A stretch of 64,000 nucleotides of DNA, taken from positions 2,480,001 to 2,544,000 of the forward strand of contig CM030338.1 of NCBI GenBank assembly GCA_017654855.1. Reading direction: 5' to 3'. The number at the start of each line of letters is the position of its first letter. The first letter of the stretch is position 1. Origin of the DNA: Podospora anserina (lineage: Eukaryota). Below the pieces are notes generated by a model that saw only the letters and a program-made list of their open reading frames with translations, was not told the DNA's origin and searched no databases. The position numbers and the translations under genes are program-made. Positions 7,860 through 64,000 of this stretch are shown piece by piece.

Positions 7860-7870
7860 AAAAAAAAAAG

Positions 7871-7918
<48 letters not shown>

Positions 7919-7938
7919 AAAAAAAAAGAAAAAAAAAA
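7860..7938 (+). repeat. ~79-nt interrupted poly(A) tract (poly-U in the probable homeobox 3' UTR)
   Basis: A-run with a few G interruptions, ~210 nt past the homeobox stop on the minus strand. Confidence 0.95.
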
Positions 7939-8151
7939 GCGCAAGGCCCGGGCTTGTTGTTTGATAAAATACATCTGAAAATAAACCGCGGGCCGGAAAC
8001 AAAAAAAGGTCCAGACCGGTCCAAAAGGTCGAAGAGAAAAAGACGTTGAACAAAGAAAACAAAAAAAGCCGTTGAGATCATTCTCAATTTCGCGGCAAAT
8101 AGGCGACCGGTGGTGCTAGGGTGCTAGCCGAACCGTTGACGTTGTGTTCGG

Positions 8152-39917: not shown

Positions 39918-41402
39918 TTTTTCTTTTTCGGCGGGAGGGTATTAACGATTAAACCCGACGGGAAGGCCGCGAGTCGGTTGGTTTTGCGCAAAAGCTAGCG
40001 AATGGCTCTTTGCGATTCAAGCTGGAGATGGTTTTGCGCGACGAGGGAATTGGCTCCGAGAATTGAGTTTGCGCGATGCAAAAAAAGGGCGGAGGAAGGA
40101 ACCGGCGATTGGGTGTTGTAGATGTATTATGCGTAACCTGCAGGAAGGGGGTGGGTGGGCAATGGTGGTTGTTGACGGATAGAGCAGAAAGGAGGGTGTC
40201 ACAGGAATGCAAGGAGAGAGAGTATGTACAAATCCGGGAAGTTGGCTGGGTGTTTAATGGGGGAAAAGAAGAAAGATTGCCCTCCCCTCGACGCGAGCAG
40301 AAAATGGAGCTGTCGCGACGGAACGCGCTACGGTTGACAGGGGGTTAAATGGGGTGGCTGGGGAGATGTGGGGAGCTCTGTTTCTCTCTCGAAGAAGGGG
40401 AGAACAATGTGTGGCTTGTGCGTTGCTGTCAAACCAGCCACAAGACATTTGACAGCTGCGGGTTAGGGTTGAGCTCGATACGAAGGCTGGGGCCATAAGC
40501 CTTTGGACTCCCACGTTAGCAGGGGTTTAAACATCACAGTGCTCATCTTGCACACTTACCGCTCACAACCCTAACCCTCGTACTTTCCTAATTCTCGCAT
40601 CTCTTTAACCACCTAAAAAGACATTATAAAAAAAGATGTAATGCGTTCAAAAGTAGCTTTTGTATATATTAGTACTTGAAATTGTTATAGAGTGACTCTC
40701 TGGTGCATTTATACTTAGATGTAATTGATGCTTTTGTAGTGTGAACTGCTTATCGCACTGTCTTAGCCCTTCTTGGCAAAACTGCTGCTAACGCGGGAGT
40801 CCAAAGACTTGTGGCCCAAGCCTTCGTAGACAAAAAATATGCAGATAGTGAAACGGCAAGCTGGCAGCAGCGTCATTGTGGACCCCGCCGCAGCAGCGGC
40901 TCAGCTTCCCGACAAGGGTCCGAGATAAACGACACGCCGCTGTTGCTGATTGTCCCGCGGTCTTGTGTCCTGATGCTTGATGAGCAACCAAGAAGCTTCG
41001 TTTCCTAAAAGGCCACCTCAACATCTTGAGAATTAATCAATCCTTTTCGCTCACCTGCCAACACACATTTACTGCGACAGATTGCGCCATCTTCCTCAGA
41101 GGCACAAATTGTTCTACAGCAATGGCTTTTTGAACGCAATCCCATTTACGCTTGATTTCAAAGCCAACAAGACACCCTTTGAAGACTTACACTGAACGAG
41201 ACCAAATCATAAATCCGCCGAGCTATATCCACCAGCTAGAAGCACGGGAACTACCACTACAAAAGTGGCAATTGCATCAACCCCTACGAGCGAGCGCCCG
41301 CCCCACTTTCCCCGGATTCTGGGCTTGCGCATCACTGGCGTCGTCAACCCTAACCACACCTATTTTCCATTTCGATCGCAGTAGGCATATAGGCTGCGCA
41401 CA

Positions 41403-43294: not shown

Positions 43295-44915
43295 TTTGGG
43301 CTACTTTTGAGTATAAGGGTGTGAGATTGATGTTTGGGGTGTGAGATTTGGAGTTGTGAATGTGAGAGCTGAGAGGTGAGAGGTGAGGTGAGAAATGGGT
43401 GGAATTGATGATGGAAAGGGCAGGGGGATGGTGGGGCTATAAATTATTTTGGTGATGAGGGGCGGGCGCTGCCTTTTTCCAGAAACACAACGAACACTTG
43501 CGCCTTCAAAAGGCACACCTCACGCAGCACGCACGGCAAATTTTCTATAAGATATCGGGCGGATTACGCCAGAAGTGGCATGTCAAACGGACCAGATGAA
43601 CCACACACCTTTTTGCGTGACAAGATCGGAGGATGTGCGTGACGTCGTCAAAAATGTCCCGCAATTGCGCAATCGGAACTGTTACCGTTTTGATAGCGTA
43701 TTGTTACGGGATGACGTGGGTAAGGGTTGTGGGTGTGCTGCATACACAACCCTGGTTTTTGGTGAATAGGGGTAGTGATGCACAAATCAGGGGTAATGAG
43801 GAAAAAAAGGTAAACTGGTGTCATGCTGCTTTATAGGTAAGTCGTGGCTTACTGCGTGCGGGTCGAGTGTTCATCACGATGTCTAAAAGAGGTTGCGTAT
43901 CTTTTGGTCGAGGCCGATGAGAAGACGATGACTGCTCTTGCTGCTCCGAGATTACGAAGTCTCGTATAATGAATGGCCCAGCAATTAGATTTCAGATACC
44001 TGTATCCCGATAGTTTCTAGACATCTTCAACCAATGCATTGGCCCCGGAGCATGGCCAACAAGCTGGGATTGCAAAGAAGCTATAAAACATACTTACTAT
44101 GTGCTCAAAAGTAATTGAATATCGTTTGGCTACCTATATCATTCATTATATCTTTAGGACGGAACATCAGCTCTCCAAAGACATCTTAGCAGCTTCGAAA
44201 AGACCATCCCAACCCGCAACACACCGTCTCCCTAGCTTAATAGACACACAGTTAATAACAGATTGCGTACATCGTGATAAGTACGAATCAAAGTTCGAGA
44301 CGTATTCGCAAGACATAAGACGCCTACGTTTGTATCAGCGTATCCAGATAAATGACGTCCTCACGCCAGCTCCATACGCCCGCACAAGTACACCACCAGT
44401 CGCCCAAGACTCGCTCGCTTTTCTTGAACCATCCCAGCAACTGGTTAACTGCCCAAAACGGGCATGGCATCAGGTAACACCCATGCAATACATCCCCCAA
44501 AAGTCTTCCCAGCAGCTCCAAAGACCGGCGACTGGGCTGTTCCGAGCATCATTTCAGCCCTCGCCCAACTTCCGCCCCGGTGATGTACAGCACATCAGAT
44601 TGGCTGCGTTCGCGATATTCGTGCCCAGATCCAAGACATCATGGGACTCCTCGACAACTTCCCAAACTCGCAGACCCGTGAGATGGCCTCGACCTAAGCA
44701 GGCGTGAGTCTGGCCGCGGGCGCAAGCGCAAAAGACACTGGCTCAGCAGCGCTCGCGAGCGCTCTAACATTCATCCCAGCCAATCAATCTGGCTGCGGTA
44801 CAGCATTTTGCATGGAGGATAGGCAGAGATATGGACATATGGCAGAGGTGTAGTGTTCAACCTGCACTTACATGACTATTTATTCTATGATTTGGGTCGA
44901 ATCCTGCTTAGACCG

Positions 44916-45099
44916 GTAGGTAAGTAGGTAGGTAGGTAAGTAGGTAGGTAGGTAAGTAGGTAGGTAGGTAAGTAGGTAGGTAGGTAAGTAGGTAGGTAGG
45001 TAAGTAGGTAGGTAGGTAAGTAGGTAGGTAGGTAAGTAGGTAGGTAGGTAAGTAGGTAGGTAGGTAAGTAGGTAGGTAGGTAAGTAGGTAGGTAAGTAG
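44916..45099 (+). repeat. Minisatellite, ~11 copies of 16-mer TAAGTAGGTAGGTAGG
   Basis: Near-perfect tandem array read directly. Confidence 0.95.
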
Positions 45100-45279
45100 C
45101 TGGATTTTGAGAGATGATTTGTTTTGGAAGATCCGTTAATACATGCCTATCACAAAGAGATATGCATGCACATTTGATGAGTCACTGTATTGTAGATCTC
45201 AAACTCAATGCTATCTAGAGGCTTACGCCACCCAGTCTACCACTTTGACCCGCCCCTCAAGACATTCCCCAAGAGTTGT

Positions 45280-53660: not shown

Positions 53661-55213
53661 GGTTGTTTGTCGTCGTTTTGCGAAACGGGGTCGAAGTGGT
53701 GGACAAGTTGGTGTTTTGTTTTCTGAAATCTGCGATGCGGGGGGAAAGTTTGGTCTGCCTTCGCTGGTTGTGCTGAAATCGCAGCTACCAGGCAGCGTTG
53801 GTCAGTCTCCGCTTTGGCTTGTTATTGGTGCAGGAGAGGCGGCAGAAAGGTGTTGGGCTTATTATGACATCAACCACGAACCAGAGGCAAGTAATCTCCT
53901 TGAGAATATCTTATCAAAAACTAACAACCTCTTTCCCCACGATCTAGTGAAAGACTCGTTCTTCCAAGAGCGCCTGGTAAATCCAAATCCACCAGGCAAC
54001 TGCAAGTCGCAGCCGCCGTCGGGCTGAGTTGACGGCCCCGCCACAACCCCGCGCCGACTGATGTGTCAGGCTGGATAAATGCATACCAACCAGGATCATT
54101 GCATAGAGGCCCCGTATGATGCAAATCATGCAGTGCGCTAGAAACCGGGACTTTCTCTTGCCGTCTTGCAACGATGGACCCTGGCGGATACCACCCTAAT
54201 AAATACATTGATCGCTTCACTGGCAGAGACGTCATGATCCAGATCATCTATCTACATTGGGCTTGAAGCAGAGGAGAATCATAACGACTTGTCATGTTGG
54301 TTTGGGCTGTTGGGCTGCCTGAACAAACACCTGAAGTGAGGCCTACCAAGCAATGCCGGGCAGAGCGAGCTTGGCAGCTGGGACAAAGACGGGAGCAAAA
54401 GTGGGCAGTTGGGGGCAGTCACAGCCACTCTCTCTGCGTTCAGCATTCCATCAGCCAAGAAATGGTCCCTCTTGGGTGGTCATCCTGTTAACCGTCGCAA
54501 TGAATGATAAGGGTTTCAAGGTCTTGAGAGTTAATCTAAGCCATGTGAGCCGGGGCAGTTTGAGTTTCAACGTTTTTTTTTTGTTGTTTTTTTTTTTTGC
54601 GAGAGCCTCAAGGGAGTCTAGTAGACAATTAAACGCACAAAATGAAGGGTTTGATGGCGAGTAAGTTGGCAAGGAGCAATGCTGCTCCCTCATTGGACCT
54701 CTTGCAAGAGTGAATGCGGTTCGCGGTTACAGGAAAGGGTGCGCGGGCCAAGGGCCCGATGGAATTCAGGCCTGGCTGCCAGGTCAGCCTGCCCGATCGG
54801 CGACAGCATTAAATATGCGGTATCCTAGGGAAGCCCCAGCTGCTTGACTCCTCCCGCCTCCATCGCGATTCTCTTTCCTACCACAATAAACAAACCCCTC
54901 AAAAAACACCCCAAAAACAACATGCGCAGAGAAGCGACCGCCGAAAAATTCATCATTGCCAATTCCAGTAGTCTTACCGAGTCATCAACAAGGACCAGCG
55001 CTCCATTTGCCCTCCGATCAACCGTCACGTCGACGTTGTCGAGCAGAGTCGTTCCCCGCCCGCCCATCCCATAAATCGTCACTTGGAGCACACAAGTCAC
55101 AGACCCTCTGCTCGCCGCCCGCAAACGGTCTATCTAACCTTGAGGTTATCGCTTTCTGATCGACTATAAATCCCTCTTTCCCATCTCTACCCGCGGGACT
55201 TTCTCTTACCACT

Positions 55214-56479
55214 ATGCTGCAGCAGCAACAACGACAACCGCACGAACAACTGCGTGCTAAGCACACTCCAGGGAGACGGCGACCAAAGCGCCCGGGGAAC
55301 TCTCCCGCCCTCAAAAACTATGCTTCGGAAAACGATGTGCCTAGCGATGCGTGCGCACCGGTTGACCTCGGCATTCCGCTGACGCCACAGAAATCTGTGT
55401 CAAACAGCCCTGCACCCGTCTCGTCGTCGCAAGCGCAACCCAATCAATCCGGCAAGCCCAAAGGTCGCACTGCGAACAACAAGCCGCGCCCAAAGTCAGG
55501 CCCTTCGACATCGCCTGTTCCAGCCAGGCATGGTCGCAACTCTCCTCCCGAATCGGCTCCCGCAAAGGCCGCGGGCCTCCCTGCTGCGTATGCTGGTGCA
55601 ACATTTCATGCGTCGCCGGCTCCTGCTTCCCTCCCGATTCCCAGTTTTCTCGCTGCCAAGGCCTTGGATTCGCCCGGTATTAAGGACACCGGCCGCGTCA
55701 GTTCAGAGCCTTCGCCTCCTGCCACCGATACCGAGGCTTCTACCCCTCGGCAGAGGATCATGAGCGCTGAAATCACACGAGAAGAATCGCCGCTTGATTT
55801 CTTTTTTAAGGCTCACAGAGCTGAAAAGGAGAGCGAGGCCCGCAGGGCGAGCACGGCAAATATCTCGATTCCTCCATCTAGCATGTATTCGCCACCAGCC
55901 CAGCCGCAATCTCCTTTGGCCCCTAGGACAGTCCCGAACGGCATTGATGCCCGTCGTCACCAGCGACCAGTATATCAGCGGAATGGATCAAGCGGAATTT
56001 CAACTTCGGAGTTGGACGGCAACCCAAGAGCCCCCATTGGACCAGCCTTCTCGACACCTTATAACGACAGGCTTCGGGCAGCAGGACGCATCAATGAAAA
56101 GCAGGCCAACTCTCCACAGAGCACCTTTCATCAGCAGCAACAGTTCGCCCCTCCCCAACAGTCATCGCCGGCAGATGCCACAGAGAGGCTCAAACAGTAT
56201 CTTGCCATTGGTTCTCAACCACCGATCAAGTTGGATTTCACCAAAGCATCATCCCAACCCAAAAATCAGGCTCCTCCCAAGCCAATCACTTTGGAGTACA
56301 CCCGCTCGGGCCCGGCACCCGACATTCCCAGGCAGTACCCCGTTGCCGGGCATGCTAGACCTGAGTACAGCCGACCGGCAGACCTTGTGGACGCAGAAGA
56401 TCATCTTCGTCGTGTGTTGAAGATTGACGGACTGAATCTAGGAGGAGCGCGCCTTCCAACAAATTATCAGAGCTCCTAA
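55214..56479 (+). CDS. Disordered Pro/Ser-rich protein with PNRC/Edc1-type YAGxxF..LPxP motif (putative mRNA decapping activator)
   Basis: 421-aa intronless ORF with YAGATFHASPAPASLPIPSF at ~55589-55648 and short Leu-rich helices (LKQYLAI, LRRVLKI). Confidence 0.75.
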   Translation: MLQQQQRQPHEQLRAKHTPGRRRPKRPGNSPALKNYASENDVPSDACAPVDLGIPLTPQKSVSNSPAPVSSSQAQPNQSGKPKGRTANNKPRPKSGPSTSPVPARHGRNSPPESAPAKAAGLPAAYAGATFHASPAPASLPIPSFLAAKALDSPGIKDTGRVSSEPSPPATDTEASTPRQRIMSAEITREESPLDFFFKAHRAEKESEARRASTANISIPPSSMYSPPAQPQSPLAPRTVPNGIDARRHQRPVYQRNGSSGISTSELDGNPRAPIGPAFSTPYNDRLRAAGRINEKQANSPQSTFHQQQQFAPPQQSSPADATERLKQYLAIGSQPPIKLDFTKASSQPKNQAPPKPITLEYTRSGPAPDIPRQYPVAGHARPEYSRPADLVDAEDHLRRVLKIDGLNLGGARLPTNYQSS

Positions 56480-57306
56480 GTTCTGGTGCAAATCTGCAAC
56501 GGAACGCCATTTCTTGGCAAGATCCTGCATTAGGGCAGGGCATCTCATCTGTTTCATTTACCTTTTCCATGTTATTGGTTTTGTTACCTCTCTCCATTCT
56601 GGGCGTTTAGGGTATTTGTTTTTCTACGACACCAGGCACGGCATGGCGATCACGATTATTTCAGGGCTTTCAGTGCGATACGGTGGCGGACTTGGTCTCC
56701 TGGGCGAAGGGGTTACGGCGGCTCGTCACAGGGTTCTGGGGTTCTTTTTACTATCATGATTCGGATATGGTCGGTCCCTTGGGAGTTGATTTTTCATTCA
56801 TTTTCAGGAGCAATCGTCTGGATTTTTGGCATCATTATCTTTGATCAGAAGGAGTCACTTTGACTTTCCTTTTCCTCACCCCTTTTGATGCCGAGTTTTT
56901 GAGGCGAACAACAAACGGGTGGCTTATCAGTTGAAGAAGAAAGACGTTATAGATTTCTTTCCTATCTACGGCTAACTTCTACTACGATACACCGAGGGCG
57001 GCGAGGATGGCATTGGGACTTTCTCTTTTTAGCGATGGGTTTCTCCGGGTTTTTCTCAAACCACATTGGCAGGCGAGCATGGCGGGCATCTTTCGATTTA
57101 AGACGAGGGGTTGGGATTTGGAAAACGGATGGTTTCCCGAATGGGAACAAACGAGGCTTTGTTTGCGCCTCTTCCAAGTTCCTACCCCGCGCTTCTCGAA
57201 TCTATCACGATCAACGACGACAATGTCATCATCATCATCATCATTCGCTTCTTTTGCTGTTCATCGACATACATCACCAACCCACGACGATACCACGTTG
57301 CATCCA

Positions 57307-57415
57307 GCCAGCAAAGCCAGCAAAGCCAGCAAAGCCAGCAAAGCCAGCAAAGCCAGCAAGCCAGCAAAGCCAGCAAAGCCAGCAAAGCCAGCAAAGCCAG
57401 CAAAGCCAGCAAAGC
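57307..57415 (+). repeat. 9-bp tandem repeat (GCCAGCAAA)x~12, one 8-nt unit
   Basis: Direct observation. It explains the spurious ASK/PAK/SQQ ORFs. Confidence 0.95.
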
Positions 57416-58912
57416 GAACCATCATTCAATCTTTTTTATATCTCTCTTTCCTCCTCTTCGGTTCATCGTTGTTTCATTCGAAACATGGGAGTTCACGAAA
57501 AGGGGGGCAGACGGGACCTGCCTTACCACCTGACCTCATCAGTTTTTTTTTGAGGTGAAGCACTTGGGTTGTTGTTTTTTCATCAAAATGATACCCCATT
57601 ACTGCACTCAACCAACCCGGGAAATTTTTCACTGGCTTTTTTTTCTTCTTCTCTTTTTGGTCAAATGTTGGGTGGGAAACTTTGTACTTATTTTGCTGAC
57701 TCTTTTTTTTTTTTGCTTTTGTGGTTAAAGGGAGTTTTGCTTGGGGGGAGATTAGGTTTCTCTGTCCTGTTTACTACTAATACAGGTGGTGGTTGGCGGC
57801 GAGGGTGGGAATTGCTGCTGTTGTTTTTTTCCAGGAGTGTGTAGGGGAGGGGGGTGTTTAAGGCACCAAGCGGCGGGGTGTCTTTCAAATTAGGGTTGAG
57901 GGTGGGAATGAACGATGACTGGGAGGAATGGGACAGGAACTCGATGGGGAAGATGGTATGGATGGTTGAGTGGATAGGTGGTGGGTGTAGGGTGGAGGAG
58001 TTGCGGTGGTGATGATGATGATGATTTTGGATGGCACTTTTGCTCTCTGCCGAGGGTGAGAAGACTTGGCGGGCCTTATGGGTGAGGATAGTTGAACGAT
58101 GGACGATGGCCAGATGTGGGATATGGTGTAGCTTTATGGGGAGGGGTTATAGGGGTCTGCACAAGAGTAGGTGGTGGAGATGATGAAGAAGTGGGTGAGT
58201 GAACGAGCAAGAAGAGGCAGAAGAAGGGGAATGGCCAGGGAGGTGTGCAGAGATGGGGAGTGAAGAAGATCCGCAAGATGACGGGGGGGCAGGATGGCAA
58301 GGGGTACGGACACACACAAAAAACGAACGACTAACCGATCTCTCTCGAATATGGTTATTCTATCACACGATTACCTCGCGCTTTTCATGGGCAAATGCAA
58401 CGTCCTCGCTGATCAAGCGGAAACTCTTGGGGGAGGGTGGGTGGGGGAGAAGAGAAAACAAAAGAAAGAAAAAACTTTTTGGGAGGGAAATATATGGTGG
58501 GAGGATAACGCATGGACAAGAGAACCAGTTATTAGCAGACATAGTTTCGTGAAATGTCAGCAGCCATCATATTTTTTCCGCTATTTTTGGTGTTTTCCGA
58601 AGGGGAGGAGGAACTGTGATGTGATTTGTGAGACTGAAGTTATCTTGTGTAATTGGGTCATGAACACAGCGCGCGAACACGGCATTAGATTACATGAGGG
58701 TTTGTTACTCAATCTGGATGGTTCTGAGAGAATGAATGGCTATGAAGCAAAGATTTTGGATGTTGTAGCCGGGGGAGCCGGTCCCTATGACCTGGTAAGT
58801 ACCCGACCTTGCCCCACGGGGGTACGAGCTTTGCGGCCCGCAGCCAGGGGACGGGTGATACTCCTCTGGAGGTTTTTGGGATGGGATACAAGGCAGCTAG
58901 AATTTTTTCAAG

Positions 58913-58913
<1 letters not shown>

Positions 58914-58978
<65 letters not shown>
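58914..58978 (+). repeat. (GT)n microsatellite (~32 units)
   Basis: Direct observation. Confidence 0.97.
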
Positions 58979-58979
<1 letters not shown>

Positions 58980-60918: not shown

Positions 60919-61642
60919 AGAGCTCATAGGATAAAAATGAAGTAAAATAATGAAAATCCATCCTCAGAAACCAGTCAGCAGTCCATCGGTCGTGTATGCT
61001 GCCATTGTATATCTGGCTAACAAAAGGGGCTCTCAACAGCCAGGTATGCCCCCAATATCGGGAAACCAGCCTACCTCTCGAGTACACTCACTCCAAGTTT
61101 CCATGGAAGCATGCCCCACGTCGATCCCGAAGTTTGGAGCGCCCCACACTTGTCAAAAACCTAAAGTGGAACTCCCGAAATGCGGGCCGGACTCGGGAAG
61201 CCAAGGGCAGCCAAGAAGGGCTTGGCGCTTGCTCCCAAGTCCCCGTCATCGGCAGCCTTACCGAGCCGACGGCAACGTCTCATCAGGGGCAAGTGCTTCT
61301 CCATTCATGCGGGCGTTCGATGACTGAATTGAATGAACGTTGTATATATAGCAGCTGTCATTCACTGCAGTCAGTGTCATCAAACTAGGTATTCTCCAAT
61401 TCGAGAAGCAGTCTCAAGGCCATATACTCTAAACCAATCCCATTGACGTGTGATCCCCGCACAATGAGTGAGCCAAGGCAGAACAGCTGACCACTTACAA
61501 ACATCCATTTACGTGGCTCTGCATTTTTTGGAAAGTGGGAAATCACGCATCCATCTTCACTCACTGTCAAGTAGGTAGATATCAATCCATTAATGTTTTC
61601 CATCCACTGTGAACCCTCAACATCGCAATCCAATTCGGCATC

Positions 61643-62728
61643 ATGCCAGAAAACTTCTTCACCCGCAACTCCCTCCCCGAAACTACAGAACGCCTCCTCT
61701 TTGGCACAGCCCTCGCTCGGTTCCCTACCTCTGTGCTCATCGAGCCCGCTGTTCAAGGGTACTGCTCTTACACACTTCTCAACACCACCCAGCAGCTCGT
61801 TTTGCAGTTCCGGCCCGAGAAACATGCCATTGATCTTGAGGTTGCAGCTTTGGCGAGGGGGGTCCATGGGGCTTGGGCGCCGGAGACGGAATTTCTTGGG
61901 TTTGTTGGGGGGAAGGAGGGCGGGAGGATGGGGTTTTATCGTCATGGGTTGATTCCTGGGAGGATTTTGGCGGGTTTTAGGACAGGGGAGGGAGGGGTTG
62001 AGGTGGGTGGGTTGGTGAGGGAGTTGGCGGAGTTTTATGCGCAGGCGTATCGTTATGGTGGGTGTGGTGGTGAACGGAGAGGGAAGGTTGGGGGGAGTTT
62101 GGAGGGGCGGTTGGTGATGTTGAGCGAGGGACTCCCTGCTCGTTTCCGACCGTTTGTGTCTCCTGTTCTTGGAGAGCTTTCTGGGATTGTTGAGCTTCCT
62201 TGGGTGCTTACACATGGGGATTTTAGCGCGGATAATGTTATGGTGAGGTTGGAGAGCGCTGAGAAACGGAAGGAAAGGGGTAAAGGGAGGTCGAGGGGTG
62301 GTGAGAAGTCGAAGCGGGAGTTGAGGTTGAAGGCTGTGATTGACTGGGCCGAGGCTGAGTTTTTGCCGTTTGGGACGGGGTTGTATGGGTTGGAGAGTAT
62401 ACTGGGACATCTTGATCGGCTGAACACGTCTAATGTAGAAGAAGTAGGAGGGAGGTCTCGATTAAGAGAGATATTCTGGTCTGAGTTAGCAAGTCTGATA
62501 CCCCAACTGAAGGCAGATGAGAAATTCTACGAGAGGGTGAAATTGGCCGGTTTGATGGGCGTGCTATTTTGGCATGGGATAGCATTCGACAACGGGGCAC
62601 TTGACCGGGTTGTTGAGGAGGGGAGGGATGATGAGGAGATTGGGCTGTTGGATGAGATTTTGTTTGGTGAGGGGAGTGAAGACTTTGCCGAGTTAAAAAG
62701 CAAAAGAGTCGAAAACTCCAAAAAATGA
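61643..62728 (+). CDS. Aminoglycoside phosphotransferase / choline kinase-like (APH) family protein
   Basis: 361-aa ORF with QGYCSYT, VLQFR, WVLTHGDFSADNVMV and AVIDWAEAEFLPFG. Confidence 0.8.
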   Translation: MPENFFTRNSLPETTERLLFGTALARFPTSVLIEPAVQGYCSYTLLNTTQQLVLQFRPEKHAIDLEVAALARGVHGAWAPETEFLGFVGGKEGGRMGFYRHGLIPGRILAGFRTGEGGVEVGGLVRELAEFYAQAYRYGGCGGERRGKVGGSLEGRLVMLSEGLPARFRPFVSPVLGELSGIVELPWVLTHGDFSADNVMVRLESAEKRKERGKGRSRGGEKSKRELRLKAVIDWAEAEFLPFGTGLYGLESILGHLDRLNTSNVEEVGGRSRLREIFWSELASLIPQLKADEKFYERVKLAGLMGVLFWHGIAFDNGALDRVVEEGRDDEEIGLLDEILFGEGSEDFAELKSKRVENSKK

Positions 62729-63110
62729 ACCCGCAACCTCAGTCCTCAGAGCAGGGAGGTACAGCACGAGCCACATTATATTGTGGTTAAAACCACTGCG
62801 CCAACTCACATCCTATTGAATGTTGCGATACTTGGAGGGGCAGAAAGGGAGCCTATATGCTACTGATGAGAGTGATGGGTTGCTCTTGCCGATTTAGGGG
62901 AGGCATGTGAAATGGGAAGGAGCGACCTGGGTGCTCCTCCCTTGACGGGACACAGGGTCACGCGGCTACCGAGGAATCCCCTCTTTTCCACCACCCCATC
63001 AGTTCTGTTTTTGTGGTAGTGGCCTCACCTCCTTCTATGCTTACTAGTACTTCAACATCCCTATACACCTAAAACCGACCGTTCTACCTAACTCTTTATG
63101 ATAATAGGCC

Positions 63111-64000
63111 ATGTCACCCGCTTCCCAACCAATTCAAATCACCAAAAAACGCCTGGTCATCTGCTGTGATGGCACGTGGATGAACAGTGACACGGGCTAC
63201 AGGAAATCATCCTACCGGAACCCTATTGGAAAAACGGCTGTTCCGTCCAATGTCACCCGTCTCTCCCGGTCTTTACGTCGGTCATGTACAGATGGAACTC
63301 TTCAGGTCATTGATTATCACTCCGGAATTGGCTTAAGTGGCAGTTTCGCAGATGTTTTATCCGGCGGTGCTTTTGGCTTGAGCATCTTTGAGGTGTGCCT
63401 CAGTCAAAGTACTGAAGCAGTCCGCACATGCTTACAGAGTTTCAGAATATCCGGTCAGCCTACTCCTTCATATGTGCCAACTATACCGATGGTGATGAGA
63501 TCATCCTTGTGGGCTTCTCACGGGGAGCCTTTACCGCAAGGTCAGCTGCGGCAATGGTCTCGGATCTAGGGCTCCTGACCCGCGAAGGCATGGAGTATTT
63601 CTACCCCATCTACAAGGACAGGCGGCATTGGCGGGATACCAAATATAAGGATCCTTTTCCGGATACACCGTTTAGTGATAAGCCCAAAGGGGATGATGCT
63701 TCACGGAAGTATCGAGAGATGCTTGTCGAGGTAGGCTTGTTCTCTCTATTTTTGTTCATGAGTGCTAAGTTACAATGATTAGAAGGGTCTCACACGCATC
63801 CATCAGAACCATGAGAACAGGTCACTGATCAAAGTGAGGGCTGTTGGTATGTATACTTGTCCCAATCATCAAAGGGTATAGTTTGTTGCGGTGGACGTGA
63901 TACTCACGCTCAAATAGCCGTGTAGGACACTATTGGAAGCTTGGGAATACCCCATTCAACCGCCGAATTTCGCTTACTTGACACTGACTTGTCAGATCGT
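63111..64000 (+). CDS. DUF2235 / Tle1-like alpha/beta hydrolase (3' truncated), carries an in-frame TAG
   Basis: Exons 63111-63392, 63446-63730, 63783-63846, 63918-end. Motifs: KRLVICCDGTW, SNVTRL, YHSGIG, NIRSAYSFICANY..IILVGFSRGAFTAR, then KVRAVAV*DTIGSLGIP. Confidence 0.85.

Follow-up and report, generated by a model that had tools for sequence, protein, structure and literature searches.

At the end of the window, by which we mean the whole 64,000-nucleotide stretch of DNA analysed, lies a plus-strand gene that starts with an ATG at position 63111 and displays four exons and three short GT..AG introns. The layout was obtained by reading the sequence and by a scripted join of the exons. 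The features, in order of position, are as follows.

63111-63392, plus strand: exon 1, 94 codons from the ATG to the donor; N-terminal part of the PF09994 domain (PF09994, 3.9e-14).
63393-63445, plus strand: intron 1, 53 nt, GTGTGC..TTTCAG; the exon junction agrees with homologous proteins.
63446-63730, plus strand: exon 2, 95 codons; GFSRG nucleophile motif (PF09994, 1.4e-24); 99% identity to Podospora pseudocomata QC762_708780.
63731-63782, plus strand: intron 2, 52 nt, GTAGGC..GATTAG; tandem TAG/AAG acceptor with the second AG at 63784-63785.
63783-63846, plus strand: exon 3, ending ..KGLTRIHQNHENRSLIKVRAV plus the first base of an Ala codon.
63843-63925, plus strand: alternative in-frame intron, 83 nt, with a weak donor GTTGGT and the TAG as acceptor.
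63847-63917, plus strand: intron 3, 71 nt, GTATGT..AAATAG.
63918-64000, plus strand: start of exon 4, which continues past the window end; reads (A)V-stop-DTIGSLGIPHSTAEFRLLDTDLSDR.
63923-63925, plus strand: in-frame TAG, codon 213; the candidate edited adenosine is 63924.
63926-63928, plus strand: Asp codon GAC, by motif (FXGXXD) the putative counterpart of the catalytic Asp of Tle1-family lipases.

The joined frame comprises 714 nt, or 238 codons, with exactly one stop, the TAG at codon 213 (63923-63925). Reading across it gives ..KVRAVAV-stop-DTIGSLGIPHSTAEFRLLDTDLSDR, and the frame is then open up to base 64000. An earlier note on this DNA had located a TAG at 63923-63925 after removal of the intron 63847-63917, and the scripted join finds it there. 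Homology is present on either side of the TAG and this is, therefore, a real in-frame stop and not the consequence of a wrong frame. The gene is otherwise intact within the window, with its three GT..AG introns and a PF09994 domain that scores well over the cutoff. The gene model and Pfam scores agree with the prior description of undamaged upstream exons, splice sites and GFSRG motif, and of a frame that stays open to the window end. At the tandem acceptor of intron 2, use of the first AG retains a lysine, and homologues have Lys or Arg at that place.

Exons 1 and 2 score 53.1 and 87.4 bits, respectively, against PF09994, for which the cutoff is 27. The assignment to DUF2235 made in the earlier note is thereby upheld, PF09994 being DUF2235, the 'T6SS phospholipase effector Tle1-like catalytic domain'. 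Tle1-family enzymes are described as having a GXSXG motif, an FXGXXD motif whose Asp is catalytic (D279 in P. aeruginosa Tle1) and a His motif of the PGxHxDIG type (PMC10395195). The first of these, the nucleophile motif, is GFSRG at 63512-63526 in the window gene. The stretch of the second motif reads A-V-A-V-stop-D, with the Asp codon at 63926-63928 kept and the TAG directly before it, and we infer that the fungal pattern A-V-[AG]-V-[WFY]-D corresponds to FXGXXD of Tle1. The place of the His motif would be past base 64000; in the full-length P. pseudocomata model this motif is FPGNHGNVGG, which is of the PGxHxxxGG type.

In an AlphaFold2 model of an intact homologue (P0019, pLDDT 71, pTM 0.78), a core strand modelled with confidence (E184-192, block pLDDT 92) carries W190 and D191 at its end. 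The best matches of this model among PDB structures are 4o5p_A, which we take to be Tle1 (E 7.4e-4, prob 0.99), 9j3f (TleB) and 4m0m. The TM scores are only 0.16-0.19, and despite this the match probabilities are 0.96-1.0. Searches of PDB sequences, with one homologue and with a 26-sequence profile, gave no match. That the gene encodes a Tle1-like alpha/beta hydrolase appears the best explanation of the domain and motifs.

A protein search with exon 2 produced 290 matches at E<=0.001 among 414 candidates, and the best 120 of the 290 were listed. The top matches are P. pseudocomata QC762_708780 (610 aa, 99% identity, in a cluster of 16 sequences), Apiosordaria backusii (84%) and Cercophora samala (79%). 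The window gene differs from that of P. pseudocomata at four of 233 comparable residues, and an ORF at 55160-56479, two genes upstream, is 99% identical to P. pseudopauciseta QC763_708760. On these identities the window belongs to the P. anserina species complex, though the four differences show that it is not P. pseudocomata itself, and orthology with QC762_708780 is the best explanation of the gene's match. It is probably also P. anserina Pa_7_8780. The last link is made through the parallel locus tags only (QC762_708780, QC763_708760) because the P. anserina coordinates in Table S1 of PMC9801653 do not transfer to the window base for base, the start and stop codons failing to line up.

Some information on expression can be attached to Pa_7_8780. 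Table S1 of PMC9801653 holds StringTie transcripts selected from 37 libraries. It gives one selected transcript for the gene, in life-cycle dataset A (library ERR2224049, one of six life-cycle samples), and zero in datasets B (19 carbon-source libraries) and C (12 response-to-bacteria libraries), 31 libraries in all, which may fit the editing hypothesis discussed below. The samples of dataset A are ascospores, germinating ascospores, 1- and 4-day mycelium and 2- and 4-day perithecia (PMC6709928). The gene name was not found in main-text literature and does not occur in those supplements of PMC6709928 that were searched.

What do relatives have in place of the stop? Among the best 120 of 290 models listed, 74 have the anchor GSLGIP after the site and at the TAG column these read W (48), F (21) or Y (2), with the codon skipped in three. 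The column, directly before the Asp of the FXGXXD motif, is aromatic and not strictly Trp. The description of it as a conserved Trp consequently holds in so far as 71 of the 74 are aromatic and most have W, but Trp is not invariant. The 46 of the 120 listed models without the anchor are missing the segment that follows VWDT. They were considered and rejected as evidence of stops, this being annotation noise in a different stretch and a sign that gene models in the region are generally noisy. Truncated models of about 236 aa from Fusarium, Cordyceps and Xylaria, considered as ending at the same codon, were also rejected; they have W there and end later.

The codon before the motif Asp has turned into TAG, and a single G-to-A change in a TGG would be the simplest route. 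With the TAG directly before the Asp, the product is deprived of two of the three catalytic motifs; if splicing is normal and editing does not occur, translation would end after 212 residues, in a fragment that keeps the Ser and loses the Asp and His motifs.

Can splicing circumvent the stop? Enumeration of GT/GC..AG introns near the site identifies one in-frame bypass, the 83 nt intron 63843-63925, which drops V-A-V-stop to leave KVRA/DTIGSLGIP. The earlier note had stated that use of the TAG itself as acceptor shifts the frame. That is correct for the GTATGT donor, but with the GTTGGT donor at 63843, four bases upstream, the frame is maintained. The deposited P. pseudocomata protein has exactly the bypass reading, without V-A-V-stop. 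At the intron 2 acceptor this model also splices to the second AG, and so loses the Lys that homologues keep as Lys or Arg. The P. pseudocomata annotation was made, according to PMC10936905, by MAKER with SNAP and GeneMark, guided by proteins and transcripts of P. anserina and P. comata, and its model may therefore copy theirs. As judged from this reading, a reference annotation within the complex had to avoid the TAG codon, which is not proof of a TAG in each species.

A functional mRNA might use intron 63843-63925, with a protein that simply lacks V-A-V-W in the manner of the P. pseudocomata model. The intron is in frame, GT..AG and 83 nt in length, it reproduces the deposited model exactly, and alternative 3' splice sites are given as the commonest type of alternative splicing in P. 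anserina (PMC9801653). In addition, AlphaFold2 still draws a strand, albeit shorter, in the shortened protein (E206-211, block pLDDT 82). We nevertheless regard the bypass as unlikely. It deletes four of the nine residues of the core strand seen in the intact homologue P0019 (E184-192, pLDDT 92), and the residues lost include the aromatic that is kept in 71 of 74 anchored models listed. Graded by splice-site consensus, the donor it requires, GTTGGT, is weak and lies 4 nt upstream of a consensus GTATGT; it requires also the second AG, 8 nt beyond the first AG that follows a branch-point-like ACTCAC. Gene predictors make such introns simply to dodge stops. Pa_7_8780 occurs once in three supplementary files, in the transcript table, with the caveat that these files may not list splicing events. 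AlphaFold2 modelling, applied to both the intact homologue and the shortened protein from Podospora, does not tell the explanations apart.

Two ways of accounting for the stop, or for its tolerance, can be dealt with briefly. The earlier note offered RIP as an alternative and it would have to have acted on a duplicated gene, which we judge very improbable. The change of TGG to TAG is CpA-to-TpA on the other strand, and this is the preferred RIP context. However, the gene region has TpA/ApT of 0.66, (CpA+TpG)/(ApC+GpT) of 1.23 and a composite index of -0.57, values in line with the remainder of the window, only one such change is present, and a repeat search of the window finds no other copy of the gene. 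With negative indices and no second copy in the window, the suggestion loses its footing. It is similarly far-fetched that translational readthrough of the UAG, or a suppressor tRNA, lets a certain amount of full-length protein be made in the absence of editing. Upstream, on the minus strand at approximately 62729-62812, is a stretch that resembles a tRNA, and there is nothing specific besides. ARAGORN finds zero tRNAs in the whole window and an Rfam search around 62729-62812 returns nothing at gathering or E<=1 thresholds; the stretch, recognised by neither program, was rejected as a suppressor tRNA. Moreover UAG followed by G, as here, terminates efficiently. RIP, readthrough and a suppressor tRNA are all unlikely.

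The leading hypothesis, which we advance tentatively, is that the gene depends on editing, with the TAG repaired by A-to-I editing in the sexual stage. During sexual development the ADAT (Tad2/Tad3) machinery would deaminate A63924 to convert UAG to UIG, which would be read as Trp, and the full-length enzyme of about 610 residues would be made only then. Editing in Podospora, editing at A63924 and stage-limited expression are each inferred. The precedent is F. graminearum, for which 71 'PSC pseudogenes' (PSC, premature-stop correction) are reported, with an in-frame UAG that is edited to UGG in perithecia (PMC10776026). According to the same source the stops are TAG, mainly derived from TGG by G-to-A, and their origins fall on different nodes of the Sordariomycetes tree, with one site in some cases hit repeatedly. 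Closer to Podospora, two members of its own order, Sordariales, are documented to carry out A-to-I editing, N. crassa and S. macrospora (PMC11156358). Of the stop codons TAG is the only one editable to sense.

The surroundings of A63924 can be compared with published preferences, which are C or U at -2, U at -1, A or G at +1, G at +2 and A or G at +3 and +4, with importance decreasing in the order -1, +1, +3, +2 and with -2 and +4 far behind at approximately 0.5% each (PMC9600606). The neighbours here are G at -2, T at -1, G at +1, G at +2, A at +3 and C at +4. Preferred bases are thereby present at four of the six positions (-1 U, +1 G, +2 G and +3 A), the four most important, with depleted bases at -2 (G) and +4 (C). 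Little weight attaches to this context, since any TAG codon brings the U at -1 and the G at +1 with it.

Structure is less favourable. The edited adenosine is preferentially in a hairpin loop, though about a third of known sites are in stems. When 500 structures of the spliced sequence (+/-30 nt) were sampled, 13% had A63924 in a hairpin loop, 56% had it in a stem and 30% had it in an interior loop. The hairpin share was equalled or exceeded at 15 of 27 control UA sites of this mRNA, and the control median is 18%. Minimum free energy folds around A63924 flip with the length of flank. In these predicted folds the adenosine does not take up the preferred hairpin-loop position. The editing proposal of the earlier note finds partial support, in a TAG where most relatives have W, an intact gene, the neighbours U at -1 and G G A at +1 to +3, and an order in which editing occurs; the predicted folds do not add to it.

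Literature on Podospora and RNA editing yielded no published map of A-to-I sites in the genus; there, editing is mentioned as background or in reference lists, and one paper just lists ADAT genes. We found none that combines DUF2235 with A-to-I editing. Among 120 of 174 short matches listed, there are no short, possibly transcript-derived Podospora fragments with the edited or spliced reading, the best identity being 72%.

A plain nonsense mutation in a decaying gene is a serious rival to editing. The gene would then be a young unitary pseudogene, in which a spontaneous G-to-A nonsense mutation struck a dispensable accessory hydrolase too recently, in a complex of low divergence, for further lesions to have accumulated, and any transcripts would give just a dead 212-residue fragment or be degraded. 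We consider this quite possible, if not the reading we would put first. The loss of two of three catalytic motifs is as expected of such a gene, and the low share of hairpin loops at A63924 also favours it. The proteins of the complex are described as 'largely uninformative', with low divergence (PMC10936905), and for this reason an intact downstream ORF is weak evidence of selection.

Several observations suggest relaxed constraint. In 92 background models, each 480 aa or longer, 180 columns reach 90% conservation or more, and these were taken as the conserved columns. The window protein deviates at 8 of 96 of them; among the background models the median is 1.2% and the 90th percentile 5%. 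Three of its four differences from P. pseudocomata (233 residues compared) are derived in the window lineage, including one change of Q to R where Q is kept in 88 of the 92 background models. In a tree of 22 chosen sequences, from Sordariales plus outgroups, Podospora, A. backusii and C. samala form a clade with 100% support and a stem of 0.27, in which the Podospora tip branch is 0.13 as against 0.074 for each of the two sisters. An 11-residue in-frame deletion after GIP is evident relative to A. backusii and C. samala, so that the short stretch already remarked upon at this point is genuine, and the DNA shows that it preserves the frame. Triangularia setosa (89% identity) and T. verruculosa (87%) have an annotated neighbouring gene, but no ortholog of the hydrolase gene from either appears among the matches listed in two protein searches.

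Other observations do not sit well with decay. The P. pseudocomata model (P0004) deviates at 3 of 86 conserved columns downstream of the site versus 7 of 94 upstream, and is open and conserved for approximately 390 codons past the site. Over conserved columns, deviations number 10/179 in P. pseudocomata, 11/179 in A. backusii and 10/179 in C. samala. The last of these has a sense codon (Y) at the site and yet is as divergent as Podospora, which indicates that the fast rate predates the stop or is independent of it. From these alignments, faster evolution is a trait of the whole three-species clade that is no worse after the stop. The post-GIP deletion preserves the frame, there is no second lesion in the 238 codons here or in the 610-residue relative, and the stop is TAG, the only one editable to sense, rather than TGA.

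Has the stop arisen more than once? The A. backusii and Diplogelasinospora grovesii models read KVRAV/GSLGIP, where six residues that span the aromatic codon are skipped and the following part is kept, and among the 74 anchored models listed only these two show the six-residue skip. With the P. pseudocomata model there are three codon-skipping models of 74 (P0004, P0005 and P0017), the other 71 reading W, F or Y. The C. samala Tyr codon is one base from TAG. A skipped codon fits a stop at the same place in other lineages and may be taken as a lead, in a region where the models are noisy. In an extended version of the editing hypothesis, the codon ahead of the catalytic Asp would be an 'editing gate' that is under selection and has recurred, with stops that arose independently in Podospora, Triangularia/Apiosordaria backusii and D. 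grovesii, and it would confine to sexual tissue a membrane-active lipase that does harm in vegetative hyphae. We think this improbable; were it true it would represent the first PSC editing site described in Podospora.

If the editing hypothesis is correct the gene would add to the well-described class of PSC editing genes. Confirmation would provide a concrete, testable restorative-editing site in Podospora anserina, a genetically tractable and non-pathogenic model fungus with staged sexual development, and the location of the stop one codon before the motif Asp offers an obvious on/off enzyme readout. The DUF2235 family would join the genes gated by editing and the idea of a 'survival versus reproduction trade-off' could be tested outside Fusarium. 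If editing is not confirmed then this is an ordinary young pseudogene, and an example of how predictors hide stops behind invented introns.

We now compare the gene with known systems. With the Tle1-family T6SS phospholipases (P. aeruginosa Tle1, V. cholerae Tle1Vc and Xanthomonas TleB) it shares the PF09994 domain with GXSXG, and the relative's full-length model has an Asp motif (FXGXXD) and a His motif of the PGxHxxxGG type. The fungal protein differs in that it is cytosolic-looking, has a long conserved C-terminal extension and lacks the context of a secretion system; structure gives a weak match (TM 0.16-0.19) and sequence gives no PDB match. The F. graminearum PSC pseudogenes, for example PUK1 and AMD1, are similar in having an in-frame TAG in an otherwise intact gene, with U at -1. 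In that species most of the stops go back to TGG, and the protein is recovered when the codon is edited to UGG in perithecia (PMC10776026). One supplement of that paper contains two alpha/beta-hydrolase PSC genes, PSC26 and PSC36, and no DUF2235/PF09994 gene, and the Fusarium DUF2235 orthologs have W at the column of the stop. The differences are that the host here is Podospora and that editing is a candidate mechanism. A further parallel is rfk-1 of the Neurospora Sk-2 spore killer, in which an early UAG is described as removed by sexual-stage A-to-I editing, so that a longer, different protein is made only then. However, rfk-1 is a meiotic-drive toxin gene, whereas the Podospora gene would specify a conserved enzyme.

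Two public DUF2235 homologue models, one from Apiosordaria backusii and one from Diplogelasinospora grovesii, bear on the in-frame TAG (63923-63925) of the hydrolase gene. Both read KVRAV/GSLGIP and omit precisely six residues around the aromatic codon, the W/F/Y family column matching the TAG, as if these genomes likewise had a lesion there. The VGSLGIP.. segment following VWDT is absent from 46 of 120 fungal DUF2235 models among the matches listed, and this conserved stretch seems frequently to be called as an intron or to be variably spliced.

A tandem acceptor, TAG/AAG, closes intron 2 of the same gene (63780-63785). Use of the first AG retains a lysine, a position occupied by K/R in homologues; the public P. 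pseudocomata model (QC762_708780) takes the second and is without that residue.

Elsewhere in the window the following features were recorded.

7865-7939, long poly-A run
40479-40528 and 40779-40828, inverted repeat with 50-nt arms
44867-45138, long microsatellite, an imperfect (GGTAGGTA/AGTAGGTA)n repeat for which 24 copies of 88 nt, overlapping one another, were reported
55160-56479, plus strand, open reading frame carrying a PNRC motif (UniRef names give 'proteophosphoglycan 5')
57274-57433, 9-nt repeat (CAGCAAAGC)n
58891-58979, long (GT)n run
61385-62461, minus strand, 358-codon open frame, antisense to and overlapping the next
61613-62728, plus strand, 371-codon open frame with a weak APH match, upstream neighbour of the hydrolase gene
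about 62729-62812, minus strand, tRNA-like stretch seen by inspection (GGCGCAGTGG.., ..GGGTTCA)

The highest local value of the RIP index (0.35) is due to the microsatellite alone, and four other 1-kb windows, scattered elsewhere, give just 0.00-0.08. The arms of the inverted repeat are 88% complementary and separated by 250 nt, and may represent a small foldback or MITE-like element.

The match of the 371-codon frame to the APH phosphotransferase family is weak and sub-threshold (20.5 bits, cutoff 23.2), and its antisense partner is probably a composition effect. The tRNA-like stretch, positioned between the APH-like frame and the hydrolase gene, was called neither by ARAGORN nor by Rfam at gathering and E<=1 thresholds. 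The PNRC-motif frame shares 99% identity with P. pseudopauciseta QC763_708760 and 87-90% with three Triangularia/Apiosordaria species.
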